Shown: one piece after another, positions 1-7,905 of the stretch | Position numbering within the stretch: the first letter of the stretch is position 1 | How the letters are laid out: every line of letters begins with the position of its first letter | Notes under the pieces: generated by a model | What the model was told of the DNA's origin: nothing | Database searches by the model: none | The model's input: the letters and a program-made list of their open reading frames with translations, nothing else | IMG/VR virus record: IMGVR_UViG_2713896795_000006 | Span: 1 to 7,905 of that record | Length of the DNA: 7,905 nt | DNA from: a virus | Taxonomy: Duplodnaviria > Heunggongvirae > Uroviricota > Caudoviricetes | Strand: one strand, 5' to 3' | Made by a program: the position numbers and the translations under genes

Positions 1-1131
1 TCAAATGACCAGTTTTTTCCACTCCTTGCCGCGTGCATCGTTGTAAATATCGGTCATTTTTTGATTCGAATGACCCAGCAAAATTTGGGTATCAATTCCC
101 TGCTCTCTGAACAATCGCTCTGATAAAGATCTCTGCTCATGGAAAGAGGGTGGGGTGCCATTAGCACGCCAGTTGTAATCCACAGAATCCCGCGCTTTTT
201 TAAATGCAACGGTTAACGTTGCTGGCTTAACCATCCCGCCGCGCTTAGCTGTCCCTTTCGCGTGATGATGGTGCAATAGCCACGGACTAAGAACGCAATC
301 GCGACAGGATGACACCACATCATCCAGGGTGAGATTTAATTTATCGCAACGCAGAGCCAGAGGGATGGCAATCCGGGTTCCTGTTTTTTGCTGTTCGACA
401 TGAAGATAACCATCCCGGATATCCGAAAATTGCATTTTGCAAATATCTGAAAGGCGCTGGCCTGTCATCAGTGCCAGCAGCATACCGCGCTGTAAAAAGT
501 AACCATCCTTTTCCGCTGCGTTATAAATCATCGTCCACTCATCAAAAGTCAGTCGCTGTCTTGATATCCGCACCTGTGGTTTTTTTGCCGATTCTGCAGG
601 GTTAAAGCCTGGCGGGACATCGCCCGTTTGCTGAGCCTCCCGGAAAACATCGATCAGTACCTTCCTGAAAATTTGTCCCATTCTGTTATGTCCTCTGGAC
701 TTGTACTCTTCCAGCACCGATACCACATCCTTTACGGTTATGGCATCTAACGGTCTGGTGCCAAAACGTTCATCAAAAACCCTGAGAGGGGCCGCTTTCT
801 GTTTCAGCGTGTTGAGTTTGATTTCTCCGTTTTCATATCTTTCCTGTTGAATTTTTCTGTAATTATTCAGAAAAATGGAAACGGTTGATGAACCGCCGGT
901 ATCATTAATAATTTTCTCCTGCAGACTGAGCATTTGCTCCATTTGTTGTCTGGCAAGACGGCTGTTCGCTTCTGCTGCAATGGTTTCCGCCAGTTTCTGG
1001 TCAATACTGCCGAGTCCATGATTTTTACCTGTGATGGGATGCCTGTAACGCCAGTAAACTTTGTTATTTCTTTTGTCAAAATACGGAGATAATCCCGGAA
1101 CAGCGGTTTTATATTTTCGCGGGCGTGCCAT
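1..1131 (-). CDS. int: Phage tyrosine integrase (lambda Int-like), 376 aa, complete; stop codon at window positions 1-3
   Basis: ORF track 1..1131 (-). C-terminus ...LLGHSNQKMTDIYNDARGKEWKKLVI closely parallels the lambda Int C-terminus (LLGH...Y..DRG.EW) carrying the catalytic Tyr. N-terminus MARPRKYK...KVYWRYRHPITGK resembles the arm-binding domain of lambda-family integrases. SD-like AGAGGA about 9 nt upstream of the ATG at 1131. The 5' end overlaps the upstream excisionase gene by 23 nt, the typical xis-int arrangement. Confidence 0.9.
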   Translation of the reverse strand: MARPRKYKTAVPGLSPYFDKRNNKVYWRYRHPITGKNHGLGSIDQKLAETIAAEANSRLARQQMEQMLSLQEKIINDTGGSSTVSIFLNNYRKIQQERYENGEIKLNTLKQKAAPLRVFDERFGTRPLDAITVKDVVSVLEEYKSRGHNRMGQIFRKVLIDVFREAQQTGDVPPGFNPAESAKKPQVRISRQRLTFDEWTMIYNAAEKDGYFLQRGMLLALMTGQRLSDICKMQFSDIRDGYLHVEQQKTGTRIAIPLALRCDKLNLTLDDVVSSCRDCVLSPWLLHHHHAKGTAKRGGMVKPATLTVAFKKARDSVDYNWRANGTPPSFHEQRSLSERLFREQGIDTQILLGHSNQKMTDIYNDARGKEWKKLVI

Positions 1132-1357
1132 CTTCCAGTATCCTCTTTAAAGCAGGGTGATCTGTGGCGATCACCTCCGGCTTGTTTACCATTCCGACAA
1201 AGCGAGCTCGCGGATCCACTCGCCAGTGTCTTCCAACTTTTTTGGGGAGAGGAAATATCATTCCGGCTTTAGCGTATTTACTTAACGTGCCCGGAGTAGG
1301 GACCGGATCGCTGAATTCCTCTTTTGCCCACTCAGTGAGCAGAATAAGTCTTGCCAT
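1109..1357 (-). CDS. xis: Excisionase (lambda Xis-like), 82 aa
   Basis: ORF track 1109..1357 (-). N-terminal segment LILLTEWAKEE...GMIFPLPKKVGRHWRV aligns by eye with lambda Xis (LTLQEWNARQ...CRIFPPPVKDGREY). Sits immediately upstream of and overlapping int. No strong SD before the ATG at 1357, so the start is slightly uncertain. Confidence 0.75.
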   Translation of the reverse strand: MARLILLTEWAKEEFSDPVPTPGTLSKYAKAGMIFPLPKKVGRHWRVDPRARFVGMVNKPEVIATDHPALKRILEDGTPAKI

Positions 1358-1420
1358 GAGTATCGTTCGCTAATCATGGTCGCCGCCACTATAGCTGGGG
1401 GCGACGACCGGGGTTGAACA

Positions 1421-3892
1421 TTAAAAATCAGACTGATTCGGGATCAGTTTTTGCCAGATTGCTGAAACGTATTTCGCCTGGTGACGGGCATCATCCAGCG
1501 CATTGTGGCGTATGCCTTCGAATTGAATAGGCGTCCTGGCATCGAAGTCTATGGATTTTCCCAGTTCAATGATTGTGCGTACATCGCGATCGTTGTAGTA
1601 GCGCCACGGGCAGGGGATACCCTGCCGTTCATATGAACGGCGTAAAATCACGTTGTCGAAGTTGGCTCCATTTCCCCAGACCTGAACAAAAAATTCACCG
1701 GAGTTTTCGTCGATAAATTCCCGCAATTGCAGTAGTGCATCATCTAACGGAATTTCATCGGTCAGAATGGCAGATTGCGCCTCACGTGATTGCTTCAGCC
1801 ACCATTTAATGACGTCACGATCAATGACTCCGCCAGCAGTATCCAGATCGATGGTCTTGCTAAATTCCGGTCCCATATCTCCGGTTTGTGGATCGAAAAA
1901 TATTGCGCCTATTGAGATAATCGGGGCATCGGGATTTTTTCCCATGGTTTCAAGGTCGATCATCAGATGAATCCCCGCTCTGCTGGTGGATGTGAGTTTA
2001 TGATGACCGTTCACCTCAATTAAGGGATCTGTCGCCTCGCCAGTTTTATTATCGCTGGCGTGATGCTGATTGCCGCCAGGGTTCTCCTTGTGTGGATGTT
2101 CAGCGCCTTCCATTTCCTCCGGATCATTTTCCTGAACTTCAACCTGATTCTCTTCATCGAATGTTTCCTGGTATGTTGCGTCGCCCATCACCGCGCCACA
2201 ATCAGGGCAGTTGCCGCCACAGCTCTGACCGCAGGCGGTGCAGACTTTTTCCGGTTCCTGTTGCGCTACTGGTTCGGATTGTTTCGTTTCTGGCTCGTTT
2301 TGTAACGCATTTGGGCTGTTTTGTTCCGCTTTTTGGTCGTTCTGTTCCGATTCTTGCTGGTTCTGGTTTACAGAATCGCGGGTTTCAATCCCCTTCACCC
2401 ATTTCGGATCATTCGGGTCGCTAATCCCTGCAACAAATTCTCCGCGAGAGGCAGCAAGCAACTTATCGGCGTCAGGCTGGCTGATATTGGCTGCCTGCAT
2501 AATTTTGTTTACTTCTTCAGCGGTAACTTTTACCGGCTCTGGTTGTGCGGTCGTGTCAGATGCACCAGTATTTTGTTGTGAGCCTGAGTATGTACCGTTT
2601 TTGCGGGCAAAATATTCTTCTTTCGTGATTTCAGTAGCCCCTGCAGTCAGCGCCTTATTCAGACCAGAAAGTTTGTTTGCACGACCATATTTTTCGCCAT
2701 CTTTATCTGTGAAGAGGAAGTAGAACGGCCCCTCACGCTCTACAGATGGTTCGACTTCCACTTTGCATTCGGTTTTTTCGTTGTCCGGAATTGCCGTTTC
2801 CACTGCATCAGTTTCTGGTACTGGCGACGAGAGAGTATCAGTTGCGCTCTGATTTGTTCCTTCATCTTCAAACACGCCCTTTGTAGTCAGGTATTCAGTA
2901 ATGTATTTGTTCAGTGCCACAGGGTCTTTGTGAATGTCGATCGGACGTTCACGGACAAGGCCAAAAATAGTCTGGCGGTCGTAGCGAAGGGCATCAGGCT
3001 GTTTGCGCATTGATGCCGAGATACGCTTCCAGTCTTCGCGGTCGTTGTCGATAACTTCATTTTTTGCCCAGCGATGGATGCTGCCGTCAATGTTTCCGGC
3101 ATCAATGTCATCAGGCCACAGAGCGTAGGCCAGTTCATCATCCAGTGTTTTCCATGTCTGCTTGTATTCGCGACGAATGGTGGCAGTGGCTGGGGGGATT
3201 TTCGCTACTGAGTTTTCAGTGTTCTGCCGGTTGACTCTGGCGCGGGCAAGATCAACAACAGACATGTATTTCCCGGTTTCTTTGCGTTCGGCTTCGCGAC
3301 GTTTTTTCCAGGTGCGTAATTCTGTCTGGATCTCAGGCCATTTTGCACCCGGCTTACATTTATGTTTAACCCACCCGATGGCGAGCAGCTTAAGCTCTGA
3401 ATACATGACGTTAACTTCAGGCATTTTCATCAATGCCTCAACGATATGCCCATCGAATGTTGCCATGTCTTCCTGCAGTAATTCCTGAGCACTAATCACC
3501 ATATCAACGGTGATGTTTTCACATGTACCGAACTTAACCAGGACCGCGTTCTGTACTTCAAGGGACAGCTTGTCAAAATTGACGTTCATCGGATCGGATT
3601 CTGGTTCGACCGGAATAAAGGAAGCGGATTCCTCATCCCAGCGGTTTTCCTGCATATATTCGGTATCCCAGGAGTCGATAGCAGGGCGGGGCATGCCGGG
3701 TTTATCCTCGCAGACAAGAAATTTATAAGCGCAGTCCTGAGCAGCCGGATATTGCTCCAGGAATTGCCAGGTAAATTTGGCACGGGCGCGGCGTTCGTCA
3801 CCGGCTTCAATGGCAGTGGCTACAGCAACTGCACCTTCTTCCTTTATTGCCTGTTCGTCCGGAATGGCGGCGCAAATAAAGACTTTACTCAT
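1421..3892 (-). CDS. Large prophage exonuclease, 823 aa: C-terminal DnaQ/Orn-like DEDDh 3'-5' exonuclease domain, Cys-rich zinc-knuckle, acidic Q/E/N-rich linker; commonly annotated in prophages as exodeoxyribonuclease VIII-like
   Basis: ORF track 1421..3892 (-). The C-terminal about 190 aa carry the three DEDDh motifs: motif I LMIDLETMG, motif II VWGNGANFDNVIL (Orn-like GNSxxxD), motif III IRHNALDDARHQAKY (Orn-like HxALDD...Y). Upstream are a Cys cluster CTACGQSCGGNCPDCG and a low-complexity acidic stretch (NQNQQESEQNDQKAEQNSP...EPETKQSEPVAQQEPEK). It sits between xis and the dicB-like module, where lambda has exo/bet and Rac has recE/recT. SD GAGG about 10 nt upstream of the ATG at 3892. 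Confidence 0.8.
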   Translation of the reverse strand: MSKVFICAAIPDEQAIKEEGAVAVATAIEAGDERRARAKFTWQFLEQYPAAQDCAYKFLVCEDKPGMPRPAIDSWDTEYMQENRWDEESASFIPVEPESDPMNVNFDKLSLEVQNAVLVKFGTCENITVDMVISAQELLQEDMATFDGHIVEALMKMPEVNVMYSELKLLAIGWVKHKCKPGAKWPEIQTELRTWKKRREAERKETGKYMSVVDLARARVNRQNTENSVAKIPPATATIRREYKQTWKTLDDELAYALWPDDIDAGNIDGSIHRWAKNEVIDNDREDWKRISASMRKQPDALRYDRQTIFGLVRERPIDIHKDPVALNKYITEYLTTKGVFEDEGTNQSATDTLSSPVPETDAVETAIPDNEKTECKVEVEPSVEREGPFYFLFTDKDGEKYGRANKLSGLNKALTAGATEITKEEYFARKNGTYSGSQQNTGASDTTAQPEPVKVTAEEVNKIMQAANISQPDADKLLAASRGEFVAGISDPNDPKWVKGIETRDSVNQNQQESEQNDQKAEQNSPNALQNEPETKQSEPVAQQEPEKVCTACGQSCGGNCPDCGAVMGDATYQETFDEENQVEVQENDPEEMEGAEHPHKENPGGNQHHASDNKTGEATDPLIEVNGHHKLTSTSRAGIHLMIDLETMGKNPDAPIISIGAIFFDPQTGDMGPEFSKTIDLDTAGGVIDRDVIKWWLKQSREAQSAILTDEIPLDDALLQLREFIDENSGEFFVQVWGNGANFDNVILRRSYERQGIPCPWRYYNDRDVRTIIELGKSIDFDARTPIQFEGIRHNALDDARHQAKYVSAIWQKLIPNQSDF

Positions 3893-3972
3893 TTTGTTTT
3901 AACCTCATTACAGATTTAAGGGTGAACAAATCCCTGCCATTGCTGGCATCTAAAAATGAAACCGGATATTAA

Positions 3973-4176
3973 TTACGGTGCTGCTTTAAGTCCTGCCGGG
4001 ATTTCGTTATTGTCCATGCGAATAACTTTATCAACCGGATAACAGTTGCCGGGAATTTTCTGTTCCGCTGCGGCAGCCATGCATTCTTTCATTGAGTCAT
4101 GTATACCAATAACAAGATCGACTGGTTCGCCTGTATTAAGAAAAACTGTCAGAACGAGTGCAAATGCTGTATTCAT
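3973..4176 (-). CDS. ydfD: Small hydrophobic-N-terminus protein, 67 aa, YdfD-like (DUF1482-type prophage protein)
   Basis: Internal ATG of ORF-track ORF 3973..4230, giving MNTAFALVLTVFLNTGEPVD...IPGNCYPVDKVIRMDNNEIPAGLKAAP. SD AAGGA 8 nt upstream. The ATG lies 2 nt after the dicB-like stop (TGAcaATG), suggesting translational coupling. Same position as ydfD downstream of dicB in Qin. Family assignment is from memory, not searched. Confidence 0.65.
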   Translation of the reverse strand: MNTAFALVLTVFLNTGEPVDLVIGIHDSMKECMAAAAEQKIPGNCYPVDKVIRMDNNEIPAGLKAAP

Positions 4177-4178
4177 TG

Positions 4179-4361
4179 TCAGCGTCCTTTTTGCATCAGG
4201 CGTAAACGGGCCAGCATTGAAACAATGCATATTTTATTTAATAACTCCCGTTCGTGTTTTCTCTTATTAATGGCATCTTCAGTAAATACAGGGTTACTGA
4301 TTCTGACACCAATTTCAAAACAACCTTCAGACGTATTAACGTTTGGTAATAACGTTTCCAT
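4179..4361 (-). CDS. dicB: DicB-like cell-division inhibitor, 60 aa
   Basis: ATG-initiated part of ORF-track ORF 4179..4466: METLLPNVNTSEGCFEIGVRISNPVFTEDAINKRKHERELLNKICIVSMLARLRLMQKGR, which closely matches my recollection of E. coli DicB (MKTLLPNVNTSEGCFEIGV...). SD GAGGA 7 nt upstream of the ATG at 4361. The longer track ORF begins with GTG at 4466 and has no support. Lies downstream of DicF, as in the Qin dicB operon. Confidence 0.8.
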   Translation of the reverse strand: METLLPNVNTSEGCFEIGVRISNPVFTEDAINKRKHERELLNKICIVSMLARLRLMQKGR

Positions 4362-4530
4362 TATCGCGTCCTCAACAATGAATTTTGTGATGCGGTGCCT
4401 GGTGCCTCCAGGTGACGTTAACCAGTTAACAATTAACGCCGGATACAGAGAATCCACCCATAACACTGTTTTTGGTTTTAACTGTTCCGCGTGCGCTTAG
4501 CCGCATTCACCACATCACAAAATTCACTTT

Positions 4531-4570
4531 AAAAAGGGCGGCAGAGCAGTCACGGAGTAAAACTGATACC
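4531..4570 (-). terminator. Intrinsic terminator forming the 3' end of DicF
   Basis: On the minus strand, GGCGGTA...(loop)...CTGCCGCC stem followed directly by TTTTT (plus 4531-4535 AAAAA). The stem is about 7 bp including one G-U pair. Confidence 0.6.
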
Positions 4571-4588
4571 GCCAAACGTCACCAGAAA
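4536..4588 (-). ncRNA. dicF: DicF small regulatory RNA (53 nt, ftsZ-targeting, Hfq-dependent family)
   Basis: The reverse complement of 4536..4588 reads TTTCTGGTGACGTTTGGCGGTATCAGTTTTACTCCGTGACTGCTCTGCCGCCC and is followed by TTTTT (plus 4531-4535). This matches the DicF sequence as I remember it, including the 3' GC-rich stem (GGCGG...GCCGCC) and U-tract. Position between the ydfB-like and dicB-like genes matches the Qin dicB operon. Confidence 0.85.
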
Positions 4589-4924
4589 ATTGATAACAGA
4601 GGGCGTTGCAGCGAGGTTGTCACTTAAGCGTATGGTCAACCTGACAACCCGGTGTCCTCAACGGGGGAAGGAATAACCCCGCCATACTTACCGCCGCGCC
4701 ATTTCGCGGATTGCCACAACCGGAAGCGCACGGTCGAAGTAATTTAACGACAAACCTCATAGGTGAAGGCCTTCGCCGTACGCTTTTGTGTTATGCCCTG
4801 ACTTTTCAGGGAAATATCCTTTCAGTAAACTGTCAGTGCCGGATTCTTATCCGTGTCCGGCGCACGACCACACGTAGCAGCGTGTTGGTCTCCATTTTTA
4901 ATTCAGCCCTTAATGGAGGATAAA

Positions 4925-5192
4925 ATGGCAAAATTTACAGTCAGGATCGAACTTCGCGATTCCAGTTCCGCTGATTACGATAAGCTTCATGGGATTCTCC
5001 AGAACGATTACAACCTCTTTAGGGAACACCTACCGTCTTCCTAATGCCGAATATATATATTCAAGCAAGAATGAAGACAAAGAATCTGTTGCTGACCTTG
5101 CTGAATCAGTGGCCTCAAAAGTTAAGAAAAATCCCGGAGTTCTTGTTACCGAATCTAATGGGCGCTATGTAAAAAACTTAGATGATGCTTAA
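4925..5192 (+). pseudogene. Small plus-strand gene split across two frames (39-aa ORF 4925..5044 with strong RBS, plus overlapping 67-aa ORF 4989..5192 with no RBS); probably a single gene of about 90 aa disrupted by an indel, or a coupled pair
   Basis: Strong SD GGAGGA (4915-4920) 4 nt before the ATG at 4925 gives MAKFTVRIELRDSSSADYDKLHGILQNDYNLFREHLPSS*. The second frame is open from 4914, but its only start is the ATG at 4989 with no SD; it encodes MGFSRTITTSLGNTYRLPNAEYIYSSKNEDKESVADLAESVASKVKKNPGVLVTESNGRYVKNLDDA. The frames overlap over 4989-5044. Orientation is opposite to all flanking genes. Confidence 0.4.
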
Positions 5193-5335
5193 CCTTCATC
5201 ATCACGACCTGACTCAATAGCGTGCAATGCCAGCCAGATGCGGGCTTCAGTGCCTGCATTTGGTTCCAGTTGCTGGAGGCGTTTTGCATCCTCCAGAAGC
5301 AGAGCGATAACGTGTTTTAATTCTGTTTCGTTCAT
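5189..5335 (-). CDS. Small hypothetical protein, 48 aa (YdfB/YdaG-type position in the operon)
   Basis: Not in the ORF track (below its length cutoff). ATG at 5335 (plus 5333-5335 CAT) preceded by SD AGGTG; the start lies 1 nt after the ydfA-like stop (TAAaATG). Translation: MNETELKHVIALLLEDAKRLQQLEPNAGTEARIWLALHAIESGRDDEG*. Stop at 5189-5191. Confidence 0.55.
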   Translation of the reverse strand: MNETELKHVIALLLEDAKRLQQLEPNAGTEARIWLALHAIESGRDDEG

Positions 5336-5336
5336 T

Positions 5337-5492
5337 TTATTCACCTGAATGTCTTACCAACCAACGACGCGCGCCAGATTCGGTTTTAAACGTTTTGCTT
5401 TTTGTATACGTCATCGCCGTGAACGTTCCGTCCTGGTTGGGAAACACGCCGCACACCAGAGATTCGTTGTTGCCAAGATCGATAGTTTCCAT
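5337..5492 (-). CDS. ydfA: Small prophage protein, 51 aa, YdfA/YdaF-like; first gene of the leftward (dicB-type) operon
   Basis: Not in the ORF track (below cutoff). ATG at 5492 with SD GAGG 4-5 nt upstream; stop TAA at 5337-5339. Translation: METIDLGNNESLVCGVFPNQDGTFTAMTYTKSKTFKTESGARRWLVRHSGE. The length (51 aa) and first-gene position match YdfA of Qin. Homology is recalled, not searched. Confidence 0.6.
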   Translation of the reverse strand: METIDLGNNESLVCGVFPNQDGTFTAMTYTKSKTFKTESGARRWLVRHSGE

Positions 5493-5671
5493 GTTGACCT
5501 CATTTCCCCTTATCGCCGGGGTAGCGGAACAAAAACCTGCTGCATAGTTAAAAGTTGAACCCTGCCGTCACTTTCGAATGCCTCGGGCTGGCTACATTGA
5601 CCCCTGATCACCTGCCGGGTAACTCGAAGTATTGCCCTGCGTTCTGTGGGGCGGGGTGGGTTGGTATTTGT

Positions 5672-5699
5672 AGTTTAATAAACATTAAACATAAGTCAA
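5672..5699 (-). promoter_or_regulatory. Candidate early-left promoter (PL-like) for the ydfA-ydfB-dicF-dicB operon: -35 TTGACT (plus 5694-5699), 16-bp spacer, -10 TAAACT (plus 5672-5677)
   Basis: Minus-strand hexamers are identical to those of the candidate rightward promoter at 6687-6716. An operator-like motif AAAACTAAAC at 5703-5712 resembles the AAACACTAAAC repeats in the divergent region. Sequence-based prediction only. Confidence 0.4.
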
Positions 5700-5722
5700 G
5701 CAAAAACTAAACCACAGAGCAC

Positions 5723-5761
5723 AACAACCGCAACGCTTTTGATAAAGTCGTTGCGGTTGTT
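5723..5761 (-). terminator. Strong hairpin 22 nt downstream of the parE2-like stop; probable terminator or insulator of the repressor-antitoxin-toxin operon
   Basis: Perfect 13-bp stem AACAACCGCAACG (5723-5735) with CGTTGCGGTTGTT (5749-5761), loop 5736-5748, extendable by CTTT/AAAG with one bulge. Flanking U-rich stretches on both strands are imperfect, so this may act as a weak or bidirectional terminator. Confidence 0.45.
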
Positions 5762-5783
5762 ATGTTTCTATTGGTGGTGAAAG

Positions 5784-6062
5784 TTAGGGAAACTGGCGTC
5801 TTGCGTGGATCACGTTTACTACTTCAACGCTTGATGTTGTTACGCGGTATAGAACTATATAGTTAGGGTGGGCCACAATCTCACGCAAGCCAGGAACTCT
5901 GTCGCTTGGTGGGTATAAATACGGGTGTTCGGATAACGGTAACACACAACCCCTTAATCGCTGCCATAAGCGCTCTGCCGCATCTATGTCGAAACGAGCA
6001 ATATAACTAGTTATATCATCTAGGTCGGTATCTGCGCTTTCAAGCCATAACACGGGTAACAT
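5784..6062 (-). CDS. parE2: ParE/RelE-family type II toxin, 92 aa (ParE2-like)
   Basis: Internal ATG of ORF-track ORF 5784..6158: MLPVLWLESADTDLDDITSYIARFDIDAAERLWQRLRGCVLPLSEHPYLYPPSDRVPGLREIVAHPNYIVLYRVTTSSVEVVNVIHARRQFP. The C-terminus (YIVLYRV...VEVVNVIHARR) is typical of ParE/RelE toxins. The start lies 1 nt after the antitoxin stop (TAAaATG). Confidence 0.9.
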   Translation of the reverse strand: MLPVLWLESADTDLDDITSYIARFDIDAAERLWQRLRGCVLPLSEHPYLYPPSDRVPGLREIVAHPNYIVLYRVTTSSVEVVNVIHARRQFP

Positions 6063-6063
6063 T

Positions 6064-6255
6064 TTACTGCTTGCTCCGTTCCTTGCGCATTTTAGCAAAG
6101 CGTTCTGCCATTCTGCGCTCAACTTCGTCATGGGGAATTGCTGGGCGCGGATCTGCAAGGCTCGTTGCTACTTTCGCACGCAGCCATTCGTTGTAACTGT
6201 TTTCTTGTTCAATGGTATCAAACTCAGAAACCATTGGTGAAAGGGCTCTATTCAT
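6064..6255 (-). CDS. paaA2: Small antitoxin, 63 aa (PaaA2-like)
   Basis: Internal ATG of ORF-track ORF 6064..6309: MNRALSPMVSEFDTIEQENSYNEWLRAKVATSLADPRPAIPHDEVERRMAERFAKMRKERSKQ. Strong SD GGAGGA 5 nt upstream of the ATG at 6255. Matches my recollection of the 63-aa PaaA2 antitoxin of the E. coli O157 paaR2-paaA2-parE2 system. Sits directly upstream of the ParE-like toxin. Confidence 0.85.
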   Translation of the reverse strand: MNRALSPMVSEFDTIEQENSYNEWLRAKVATSLADPRPAIPHDEVERRMAERFAKMRKERSKQ

Positions 6256-6275
6256 GTTTCCTCCGGTTTTATAAC

Positions 6276-6647
6276 TCAGGCGCGGCGGCATTTTTGCGCC
6301 GCAATCCATCTCGCTATGAGATCTTCCATTGATTCTTTTTTCTGTTTTAACTCGCTGATTATCTGGCGTTGCTCATCCTCAGGGAAGGCTGAAAAAATCT
6401 GCAATAATTCCAGTTGATTAGACGTTAATCCTGCATGCGGTGGAGAAACCTCTGGTTGTTCTGCGTATTCCGCATCCAGATACCCCTCCGGCATCCCGTA
6501 TGTTTGCTCTATTCTTCTGGCTGCCTTTTCTCCAAACGAGGCTCTCCCACTCATTAGCTGAGATAGGTAGCTCTTCTCTTTGGGTGGCAGAGTTTTATCT
6601 TTAAACCACTCCTTGAGACGTAAACGGCGAATTTCTTTTTTTTGCAT
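6276..6647 (-). CDS. paaR2: HTH (XRE/cI-like) transcriptional repressor lacking a peptidase domain, 123 aa (PaaR2-like; C-terminal region DicA-like)
   Basis: ATG at 6647 within ORF-track ORF 6276..6710 (the track start at 6710 is GTG). N-terminal HTH-like segment KSYLSQLMSGRASFGEKAARRIEQTYGMPEGYLD. C-terminal LTSNQLELLQIFSAFPEDEQRQIISELK resembles the DicA C-terminus (LSPKELELLELFNALPESEQ...). No SD before the ATG, and a -10-like GATAAT lies 7 nt upstream, consistent with a leaderless, cI-like transcript. First gene of the three-gene operon. Confidence 0.8.
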   Translation of the reverse strand: MQKKEIRRLRLKEWFKDKTLPPKEKSYLSQLMSGRASFGEKAARRIEQTYGMPEGYLDAEYAEQPEVSPPHAGLTSNQLELLQIFSAFPEDEQRQIISELKQKKESMEDLIARWIAAQKCRRA

Positions 6648-6744
6648 GTGGTAATTATCTTTAGTAATCACTAAACAAGCAAATACTTGACTTAATGGTT
6701 TATTAAACACTAAACTTGCAAAAAAACACTAAACCGAGGAAGGT
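6648..6744. promoter_or_regulatory. Divergent promoter/operator region between the repressor and the cro-like gene: three direct repeats AA(A/T)CACTAAAC, candidate PR (-35 TTGACT 6687-6692, -10 TAAACT 6711-6716) and candidate leaderless PRM-like promoter (minus strand; -35 TTGCTT = plus 6677-6682, -10 GATAAT = plus 6654-6659)
   Basis: CACTAAAC occurs at 6669-6676, 6708-6715 and 6727-6734 (spacings 39 and 19 bp); the second copy overlaps the PR -10 and the third the predicted start region. The 97-bp AT-rich interval lies between divergently oriented regulator genes. Sequence-based prediction only. Confidence 0.5.
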
Positions 6745-7047
6745 ATGACATTAAAAGAGTTTATTAAATCATTGAGGGTTGGTGATGCCAAGAAATTCGC
6801 GGCCAGACTTGGTGTATCGCCATCTTACCTATCGCAAATGGCGTCTGGACGAGCAGCGATATCTCCAACCCGCGCCCTTATGATCGAATCTGCGACGGAA
6901 GGCCAAGTAAGTAGGGCGGAGCTACGGCCCCATGATTGGGAGATTATTTGGCCTGAGTATGCGCGCGGTATTCGTTTGGGGCAAACGCATGTAGCTCATG
7001 CTGAAGGTGATTGTAGTGCATGCTTATCTGATGGAGTTGATTCATGA
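6745..7047 (+). CDS. ydaS: Cro-like HTH regulator, YdaS family, 100 aa
   Basis: ORF track 6745..7047 (+). Strong SD GAGGAAGG 4 nt upstream. Segment LGVSPSYLSQMASGRAAISPTRALMIESATEGQVSRAELRP matches the YdaS-type HTH pattern (LGVSP...P...IE.AT.G.V....LRP). Stop overlaps the next gene start (ATGA). Confidence 0.85.
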   Translation: MTLKEFIKSLRVGDAKKFAARLGVSPSYLSQMASGRAAISPTRALMIESATEGQVSRAELRPHDWEIIWPEYARGIRLGQTHVAHAEGDCSACLSDGVDS

Positions 7048-7469
7048 AAATCAAGCATGAACACATCCGCATGGCGATGAATGCCTGGGCGCATCCGGAC
7101 GGCGAGAAAGTTCCGGCTGCAGAGATTACCAAAGCGTATTTTGAACTGGGAATGACGTTTCCGGAACTGTACGACGATTCACACCCAGAAGCCCTGGCTC
7201 GCAATACTCAGAAGATTTTCCGCTGGGTGGAGAAAGATACTCCTGATGCGGTTAAAAAAATTCAGGCGTTGTTACCAGCGATCGAAAAGGCAATGCCGCC
7301 ACCGCTGGTGGCCCGAATGCGTAGTCACAGTTCGGAGTATCACCGGGAGATTGTCGAGCGACGGGATCGGCTGGTGAAAGATATCGATGAGTTCGTTGCA
7401 TCAGCGATCGTTCTGTTCGACCAGATGAATCGCGGTGGTCCGGCAGGAAATGCCGTGGCGGTGCATTGA
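7044..7469 (+). CDS. ydaT: YdaT-family protein, 141 aa (putative CII-like regulator or toxic protein of Rac-type prophages)
   Basis: ORF track 7044..7469 (+). N-terminal MKIKHEHI... is characteristic of YdaT as recalled. Start codon overlaps the ydaS stop (ATGA), indicating translational coupling. Confidence 0.8.
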   Translation: MKIKHEHIRMAMNAWAHPDGEKVPAAEITKAYFELGMTFPELYDDSHPEALARNTQKIFRWVEKDTPDAVKKIQALLPAIEKAMPPPLVARMRSHSSEYHREIVERRDRLVKDIDEFVASAIVLFDQMNRGGPAGNAVAVH

Positions 7470-7539
7470 CTGGCAATATTTATACTGGATCGCTTCCGGT
7501 AGTGCGTGATTAAGAGATTCGGTATCAGAAGAGGCAATT

Positions 7540-7905
7540 ATGGCCGCATTACCATACATGCAACTGTACATAGCTGATTACCTGGCCGACACCATGCATT
7601 TGTCAGCAGAGGAGCATGGTGCGTATTTGTTGCTGATGTTCAATTACTGGCAAACAGGAAAGCCAATACCTAAAAACAGGCTGGCAAAAATTGCCCGTCT
7701 GACTAACGAGCGATGGGCTGATGTTGAACCATCCTTGCGGGAGTTTTTTTGCGATAACGGCGATGAATGGATGCACCTTCGGATTGAGGAAGATCTGGCA
7801 TCAGTCAGGGAAAAATCAATAAAAAAATCGGCTGCGGGAAAAGCATCTGTTCAGGCCAGGAGAAACAGAAAGGAATCATATGCTCAAACAAAACACGAGC
7901 GAAAT
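7540..7905 (+). CDS. ydaU: DUF1376/YdaU-like prophage protein, N-terminal 122 codons; 3' end beyond the window
   Basis: Not in the ORF track because no stop lies in the window. ATG at 7540 with SD GAAGAGG 5 nt upstream; open to the window end. Translation MAALPYMQLYIADYLADTMHLSAEEHGAYLLLMFNYWQTGKPIPKNRLAKIARLTNERWADVEPSLREFF... fits the DUF1376 signature (Y.aDYL.DT.HLS..EHGAYLLL...YW..G.P.P). Confidence 0.8.
   Translation, partial: MAALPYMQLYIADYLADTMHLSAEEHGAYLLLMFNYWQTGKPIPKNRLAKIARLTNERWADVEPSLREFFCDNGDEWMHLRIEEDLASVREKSIKKSAAGKASVQARRNRKESYAQTKHERN

Follow-up and report, generated by a model that had tools for sequence, protein, structure and literature searches.

The 7,905-nt stretch of viral DNA analyzed here (Caudoviricetes; positions 1 to 7,905 of IMG/VR record IMGVR_UViG_2713896795_000006; hereafter, the window) encodes a predicted 823-aa exonuclease whose architecture is, to near certainty, that of a RecE-family mosaic, with a DEDDh nuclease cassette placed where the PD-(D/E)XK domain of RecE would start. 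The gene is a single uninterrupted open reading frame (ORF) of 823 codons, and its sequence identifies it as the intact form of a widespread Escherichia coli prophage gene that is truncated as ydfE in strain K-12. The gene itself is known, being annotated and covered by PHROG and Pfam families (PHROG 2082 matches the protein end to end); what is new, and modestly so, is a RecE-family protein with a DexA-type nuclease. We did not find the RecE-scaffold reading of this protein stated in the literature searched.

Architecture of the exonuclease

The original prediction, made from the window's sequence without database searches, had quoted DEDDh motifs at the C-terminus. These are present as quoted (DLET at residue 646, GNGANFD at 740 and HNALDDARHQAKY at 796), and residues 642-813 match Pfam family PF16473, the Rv2179c-like 3′-5′ exoribonuclease domain, over positions 2-177 of its 177-position model (E = 2.5e-65; 219.9 bits against a cut-off of 27 bits). 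Pfam additionally gave a weak PF00929 (RNase_T) match. The domain's closest sequence relative in the PDB is T4 DexA (exonuclease A; 8KEL), and D646, E648, D746, H796 and D801 all align with DexA's catalytic residues (Exo motifs D-x-E, D and H-x4-D). Except for a single E to K substitution, the five residues are invariant across 120 cluster representatives. The C-terminus thus carries a genuine domain of the DEDDh class. Homology to DexA and PF16473 also supports the 3′-5′ polarity proposed earlier, and family knowledge predicts a Mg2+- or metal-dependent 3′-5′ exonuclease. Pfam detects the PD-(D/E)XK domain PF12684 in K-12 RecE and none in the 823-aa protein. The DEDDh assignment of the original prediction is supported.

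The domain shares its family and its five aligned catalytic residues with DexA (8KEL/8KEN), but it is only 27-29% identical to DexA and lacks DexA's extra loops. The proposed 5-hydroxymethylcytosine readers of DexA are not kept (W152 is replaced by Tyr, and D169 by Ser or Phe according to the alignment), while the equivalent of Asp90, DexA's 'tetramer' residue that is lost in the E. coli homologue EcD, is retained. DexA and EcD stand alone at ~190-230 aa; in the window's gene product, the domain forms the C-terminus of an 823-aa protein. Rv2179c of Mycobacterium tuberculosis belongs to the same Pfam family, the whole 177-position model being matched, and differs as a small standalone bacterial exoribonuclease whose likeness is seen through the Pfam model only. 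A 3′-5′ DNase activity is quite probable for the 823-aa protein, and DNA is the likelier substrate than RNA, because the nearest characterized sequence relatives, DexA and EcD, are DNases (PMC12153337) and because the scaffold derives from a DNA exonuclease.

For the N-terminal region of about 550 aa, the original prediction had no family to name. That view is superseded: the first ~625 residues share homology with RecE outside its nuclease and with K-12 YdfE. NCBIfam NF007259, the RecE equivalog model, aligns residues 218-625 to its positions 242-602 and, with the match confined to those residues, reaches 277.8 bits and not the whole-protein cut-off of 1269 bits. In BLASTP, residues 262-625 align with K-12 RecE 278-591, and residues 475-625 are near-identical to RecE, including a CxxC-x7-CxxC knuckle and the acidic stretch. 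The sole DNA-level similarity to Rac recE is a 450-nt block of 76% identity that encodes residues 475-625; it ends at residue 625 here and at 591 in RecE, just short of PD-(D/E)XK, whose crystallized domain comprises RecE residues 606-866 (PMC11611040). Residues 1-215, the portion still present in K-12 YdfE, had no Pfam hit, PF06630 itself giving no match. Profile-profile comparison (hhalign) with the RecE N-terminal domain returned a probability of 99.4% with bridging sequences, and 96.3% (E = 1.9e-9) once the sequences matched by both profiles were removed. Based on the middle-region, DNA-block and N-terminal profile matches, everything outside the nuclease is RecE-like, the nuclease cassette being the one difference. 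The 'domain-swapped RecE relative' suggested earlier is thus borne out, both by a sequence that stays nearly identical to RecE right up to where the nuclease begins and by mosaics among the relatives.

An AlphaFold2 (AF2) model of residues 1-470 has four folded blocks at a mean predicted local distance difference test (pLDDT) score of 82.5; within the middle region, a helical block (245-340) and a small beta-hairpin/helix block (386-435) flank a disordered segment (346-383). No annealase, Gam, OB or nuclease fold was matched by this scaffold model, which argues against an annealase hidden in the N-terminal region. A profile of N-terminal homologues, compared with PDB sequences, matched only RecE 3H4R, and this candidate was rejected, its C-terminal columns having come from PD-(D/E)XK relatives in the alignment. 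The model of residues 436-823, built on a shallow alignment, has a mean pLDDT of 51 and was kept out of the fold search; at this low confidence, it suggests that residues 500-640 are largely disordered, the linker falling below 50. The acidic linker described earlier is supported, as a disordered one. RecE homology stops at residue 625, and homology to standalone DEDDh proteins starts at ~641-643.

The zinc knuckle of the original prediction (CTACGQSCGGNCPDCG at 551) holds as a motif of four cysteines, not five. Of 121 sequences, 120-121 keep C551, C554, C562 and C565, and zinc binding by these residues is putative. Codon 558 (2221-2223, minus strand) encodes an allele-specific Cys that is Gly in 119 of 120 relatives, Ser in the remaining one and Gly in RecE too; the count of five arose because this allele carries Cys558.

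We calculated pairwise ratios of non-synonymous to synonymous substitution rates (dN/dS) against three other full-length copies from three other loci. The ratio is 0.17-0.28 over the whole gene and 0.03-0.27 in every folded block, N-terminal blocks included (DEDDh domain, 0.12-0.27; residues 471-550, 0.09-0.21), and rises to 0.74-1.5 in the acidic linker. Low ratios in the folded blocks, a mark of purifying selection, together with a ratio near 1 in the linker therefore indicate a working multidomain protein with a flexible tether, and not a relic. On sequence grounds, the ORF is clearly real.

Table 1. Features of the window, in window positions; residue numbers refer to the 823-aa protein.
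Feature	Position	Strand	Basis or remark
Whole gene, 823-aa RecE-scaffold/DEDDh exonuclease, intact ydfE-type	1421..3892	-	stop codon 1421-1423
Residues 1-215: N-terminal alpha/beta block (1-100) and helical block (105-205)	3248..3892	-	remote RecE N-terminal domain homologue (PF06630 region)
Residues 218-470: RecE-like middle region	2483..3241	-	NF007259, BLASTP, AF2 model
Residues 471-550: most conserved RecE-shared block, DKLLAASRGEFVxGISDPNDPKWVKGIxTRD...	2243..2482	-	near-identical to RecE 455-520
Residues 551-566: four-Cys CxxC-x7-CxxC knuckle	2195..2242	-	Cys conservation; same motif in RecE
Residues 567-641: acidic disordered linker and 16-aa junction (626-641) to the nuclease	1970..2194	-	dN/dS, pLDDT, homology edges
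Residues 642-823: DexA/Rv2179c-type DEDDh 3′-5′ exonuclease domain (predicted)	1424..1969	-	PF16473, DexA alignment
Chi site GCTGGTGG at the domain junction, within codons S635-T636-S637 and antisense to them	1982..1989	+	same place in all six DEDDh-variant genes checked
Integrase (int)	1..1131	-	ORF list, PGAP of matching prophage
Excisionase (xis)	1109..1357	-	PF07825; PGAP 'excisionase'
ydfD-like DUF1482 gene, immediately upstream of the exonuclease	3973..4176	-	PF07358; PGAP coordinates
dicB, cell-division inhibitor	4179..4361	-	PF05358, E = 4.5e-37; PGAP
DicF small RNA	4536..4587	-	Rfam RF00039, 76.7 bits

Relatives, prevalence and origin of the gene

A comparison of residues 1-640 with 1.84 billion representative proteins yielded 255 relatives. 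A separate protein search was filled by near-identical E. coli proteins, for which the precomputed Pfam accessions PF27430 and PF27432 were listed. Mapping of reference domains onto the long relatives shows combinatorial mosaics: they begin with either this protein's own N-terminus or the RecE N-terminus, continue with the middle region and knuckle, and finish in DEDDh, in PD-(D/E)XK or in an end without a Pfam match. Nine proteins of ~700-790 aa (P0126, P0130, P0134, P0135, P0150, P0167, P0179, P0184 and P0253) share the N-terminal scaffold, and their last ~300 aa, without a Pfam match, are unlike either nuclease cassette. Scaffold proteins with such a C-terminus may correspond to what Zheng et al. 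2025 call 'RecE-2', described as lacking a nuclease domain (PMC12315714).

A scan of contigs for the gene returned eight loci, all from Escherichia/Shigella or from contaminated metagenome-assembled genomes (MAGs), which is not a broad taxonomic sampling. In 9 of 9 DEDDh-ending loci, the order dicB-ydfD-exonuclease-xis-int is kept with nothing in between, including two loci with a RecE-type N-terminus, two integrase types and one degraded locus (Shigella). The PD-(D/E)XK counterpart is a 987-aa relative at locus L014 (8001-12013), 79% identical over residues 1-540, whose gene is directly followed by that of a divergent 345-aa RecT (PF03837, E = 2.7e-44). No annealase was found at the nine DEDDh loci, and L014 has recT; therefore, the annealase travels with the PD-(D/E)XK cassette and not with the scaffold. 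Two of the records carry doubtful labels. That of L014 names a soil 'Proteobacteria bacterium' MAG, and its sequence is Escherichia-like. A contig labelled as a Veillonella parvula MAG (L010) carries a DEDDh exonuclease with a RecE-type N-terminus, dicB, ydfD, xis and an IntR-type integrase; it is clearly an enterobacterial prophage, and its label probably stems from a binning error.

Rac RecE (exodeoxyribonuclease VIII) is among the closest known systems. Both genes occupy the early-left slot near xis-int, and both proteins share the scaffold, knuckle and acidic linker, but RecE ends in PD-(D/E)XK (PF12684; PDB 3H4R) and this protein in DEDDh, with the opposite inferred polarity, and this gene has no adjacent recT. 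Residues 1-256 are 86% identical to the K-12 Qin pseudogene ydfE (b1577), which lies at the same operon position after dicF-dicB-ydfD and lacks everything after residue 256, where IS2E interrupts it and the nuclease and the rest are lost.

The nuclease domain also occurs alone. Standalone DEDDh proteins of 189-190 aa in ST64B and PhiR40_1 are 57-61% identical to the C-terminal domain, as is a standalone 190-aa E. coli prophage protein (61%), and the ST64B and PhiR40_1 genes occupy the same slot, immediately upstream of xis-int. Together with g341c gp29, ST64B Sb30 and the PhiR40_1 product are 55-61% identical to residues 642-823 and differ in having no RecE-type scaffold; the ST64B record already remarks on the similarity of Sb30 to CP-933 prophage proteins. 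In the Salmonella phage g341c (L021; 2772-4852), the standalone DEDDh gene (55% identical) belongs to a canonical erf-ssb-abc2 recombination module of the P22 type, where it is flanked by ssb and abc2 with erf close by, and not to the slot by xis-int.

A simple origin that we infer is a recE-type early-left operon in which a deletion, in frame, fused the RecE linker with a DEDDh gene near int; the same deletion would have removed the PD-(D/E)XK domain and recT. The DNA similarity to the standalone DEDDh genes begins at about their start codon, which led us to reject the junction as a read-through of the standalone gene's former 5′ untranslated region. The junction also contains a single Chi site (Table 1), found at the same spot in 6 of 6 DEDDh-variant genes checked (the window and L006-L010, including a 72%-identical copy) and absent from K-12 recE and from the PD-(D/E)XK variant L014. 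This shared site may reflect common descent or a recombination hotspot at the module boundary.

The arrangement was at first taken as unusual, and it is common. Among 5426 complete E. coli genomes, 4061 (75%) contain the DEDDh-coding DNA, with up to seven copies each, and the family is both a PHROG entry and named by the Prokaryotic Genome Annotation Pipeline (PGAP). This pipeline calls the protein and its close relatives 'exonuclease' or '3′-5′ exoribonuclease'; the name 'exonuclease' belongs to WP_049595149.1, in a 99.6% identical prophage. The GenBank phage collection has 17 records that span 80% or more of the gene, including that of an Stx2a-converting phage. Zheng et al. 2025 (PMC12315714) describe DnaQ-like nucleases as part of lambdoid Rec modules and, in sporadic cases, 'very near int'.

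Operon context, annealase and Chi sites

The family and PGAP assignments in Table 1 confirm that the gene sits between xis and a dicB-type module, as originally described. In matching genomes, the prophage is inserted next to ompW. The dicBF (early-left) operon ends with the exonuclease gene, and xis-int follow directly; xis lies 63 bp downstream of the exonuclease stop codon with no gene in between, and the window's order matches that of the K-12 Qin dicBF operon (ydfA..dicF-dicB-ydfD-ydfE). A scan for promoters and terminators gave no separate signal above chance for the exonuclease gene. The K-12 annotation places the dicBF operon beside the regulator dicA, and DicA holds the operon repressed in K-12. 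Based on the operon position and the lack of a promoter signal of its own, expression of the exonuclease is expected upon derepression or infection.

An annealase partner was reported missing from the outset, and the wider comparison agrees. No annealase of the RecT/Redβ, Erf, Sak or Sak4 type was found, as a gene or as a domain. The window has no ORF longer than 150 aa besides int, the exonuclease and a 161-aa antisense ORF inside the exonuclease gene, and consequently no room for an annealase. The complete 47-kb prophage with an identical gene (L004, from E. coli ST2350) has no annealase in its annotation and none in PHROG scans of its hypothetical proteins, and the same sources show neither Gam nor Abc2. 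A single-sequence phmmer search with K-12 RecT did not pick up L014's divergent RecT, although Pfam did; therefore, the absence of an annealase is argued mainly from gene order and ORF space. Such an absence is ordinary, given that Zheng et al. 2025 (PMC12315714) found 22% of their lambdoid phages to be without a Rec module and that, in the passage of that paper citing Bobay et al. 2013, an annealase is absent from 134 of 275 lambdoid (pro)phages.

The L004 prophage encodes a RusA resolvase and has 12 Chi sites, nine on the top strand (the lambda-active orientation) and three on the bottom strand, all in its early/nin/lysis half and none across 26 kb of late genes. ST64B (L020) has 20 Chi sites in 40 kb, 17 on the top strand and three on the bottom strand, and its early-left operon is the one to which that of LLS, the type phage without a Rec module and with many Chi sites, has been likened (PMC12315714). 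Both genomes fit the Rec-less, Chi-rich class that Zheng et al. 2025 define.

Two further observations concern neighboring regions. At 5784-6309 on the minus strand, the window carries a ParE toxin (PF05016) and a PaaA2-type antitoxin (PF21217), between a ydfA-like DUF1391 gene and a cI-like repressor. The closest prophages span only 83% of the window, with 99.5-99.6% identity outside this region, and at the toxin-antitoxin region they list a LexA-family repressor; because they have other genes there, this toxin-antitoxin/immunity region looks like a swapped-in module. In L004, the replication genes are followed downstream by three adjacent hypothetical genes (226, 183 and 713 aa; 11395-15031) that matched nothing in PHROG at E <= 1e-5 and may be cargo or a defence island.

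Candidate roles in phage biology

The explanation that we favor, tentatively and at somewhat less than even chances, is that the protein is a lytic-cycle 3′-5′ DNA-end-processing exonuclease of a phage without a Rec module, and not a single-strand-annealing recombinase. The enzyme would be made upon prophage derepression or infection and would trim or blunt free 3′ ends of DNA during lytic growth, leaving strand exchange to host RecBCD and RecA together with the phage's own RusA. Dependence on these proteins is suggested because the phage has no Rec module or Gam and its Chi sites are in the active orientation. The RecE-type scaffold would anchor the nuclease to the same partner, whichever it is, as the N-terminal region of RecE itself. 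Since a member of the DEDDh family lies inside the erf-ssb-abc2 module of g341c, a recombination-linked role stays plausible.

Several points weigh against this explanation. 3′-5′ exonucleases usually antagonize homologous recombination, according to the passage of PMC12315714 that cites Lovett 2011, and a passage of PMC13048471 on an xonA mutation and RecET-mediated assembly likewise has them opposing recombination. Lambda-type cos ends are 5′ overhangs, which a 3′-5′ enzyme does not blunt. The standalone E. coli homologue EcD acts as an anti-T4 nuclease (PMC12153337), pointing to a different role, the RecE scaffold region has been called "of unknown function" (PMC11611040), and PF16473 includes the RNase Rv2179c, so that DNA specificity has to be argued from homology. 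Finally, the link to Chi comes from two genomes, which do not amount to an association test.

As the main rival explanation, the protein could instead be a superinfection-exclusion or defence nuclease resembling EcD ('HREX'), degrading incoming competitor-phage DNA (for example, cytosine-modified DNA) while sparing the host; we hold this to be unlikely. In its favor, the gene is intact in thousands of lysogens, the domain is a DexA homologue 61% identical to standalone E. coli prophage DEDDh proteins, and the neighboring dicB reportedly has a phage-exclusion role. In the experiments of Kang et al. 2025 (PMC12153337), EcD supplied on a plasmid degraded T4 DNA and protected E. coli. However, the gene is the distal one of a lytic operon under repressor control and has no promoter of its own that could be detected, and the HREX residue signature (Trp152 and Asp169 kept, Asp90 lost) is absent from the C-terminal domain, which conserves neither DexA W152 nor D169 and retains Asp90. 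PADLOC gave only a weak, generic match to a Cas-associated DEDDh nuclease, and a defence role leaves the 640-aa RecE scaffold unexplained. A look-up of the EcD accession (HAK9828821.1) in the clusters of standalone homologues did not find it, and so gave no identity value for EcD against the domain.

It is improbable that the enzyme serves host-DNA degradation and nucleotide salvage in lytic growth, the other documented role of DexA. A passage of PMC12153337 gives T4 dexA as annotated for a 3′-5′ DNA exonuclease involved in host DNA degradation. The gene shares an early operon with the host-takeover genes dicB and dicF, and ST64B-type phages carry a deoxynucleoside 5′-monophosphate phosphatase in the same operon. 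Salvage would not need the RecE scaffold, however, and no companion endonuclease was found in the window. Temperate lambdoid phages are also not known to degrade the host chromosome.

Retention of the RecE scaffold under selection would suit a RecE-like recombination exonuclease of opposite polarity that passes 5′ overhangs or trimmed ends to an annealase provided in trans by another resident prophage or to host RecA/RecFOR. The g341c module is compatible with this arrangement, and up to seven DEDDh copies per E. coli genome are consistent with several resident prophages. We consider it decidedly improbable: recT goes with PD-(D/E)XK and not with the scaffold, an annealase is found at 0 of 9 loci, and RecT, Bet and RecA use 3′ tails that the enzyme would destroy. 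Known exonuclease-annealase pairs also reportedly need specific contacts with the nuclease domain (Muyrers et al. 2000).

The name of the Pfam family, the PGAP label '3′-5′ exoribonuclease' often given to close relatives and the weak RNase_T match would favor an enzyme directed at RNA or small nucleotides, similar to Rv2179c or oligoribonuclease, that processes RNAs (for example, transcripts of its own operon) or degrades nucleotides of host immune signalling. This is very improbable, as the closest solved sequence relative is the DNase DexA, the scaffold comes from a DNA exonuclease and the window holds no hint of a signalling system. It is barely credible that the gene is a non-functional relic in which a deletion fused a recE remnant to a downstream DEDDh gene: the architecture is what such a deletion would produce, K-12 has the IS2 truncation and the Shigella flexneri locus has frameshifts, but the gene is full length and present in GenBank phage genome records, its catalytic and Cys residues are invariant in 120 cluster representatives, and its dN/dS is low in the folded blocks and ~1 in the linker.

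We offer a broader form of the end-processing explanation as a long shot. The int-proximal DEDDh nuclease, fused or standalone, would be the characteristic end-processor of Rec-less, Chi-rich lambdoid phages, readying the ends of phage DNA for the RecBCD-Chi-RecA pathway of the host, and the conserved junction Chi would mark a hotspot for the exchange of nuclease cassettes on the RecE scaffold. If true, the DEDDh exonuclease would be a one-gene alternative to the exo-bet-gam or recET strategy.

The discovery is modest, with the gene already annotated and catalogued and DnaQ-type nucleases beside int in lambdoid phages noted in 2025. The RecE scaffold has been reused in nature with at least two unrelated nucleases of opposite predicted polarity, with RecT following the PD-(D/E)XK cassette. 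The N-terminal two-thirds of RecE improves linear-linear recombineering (PMC11611040), and the gene family offers natural domain-swap material for asking what this region does. The gene is a candidate accessory of Chi-dependent phages without a Rec module and is among the commonest uncharacterized prophage genes of E. coli, so that any function found for it would apply very widely.

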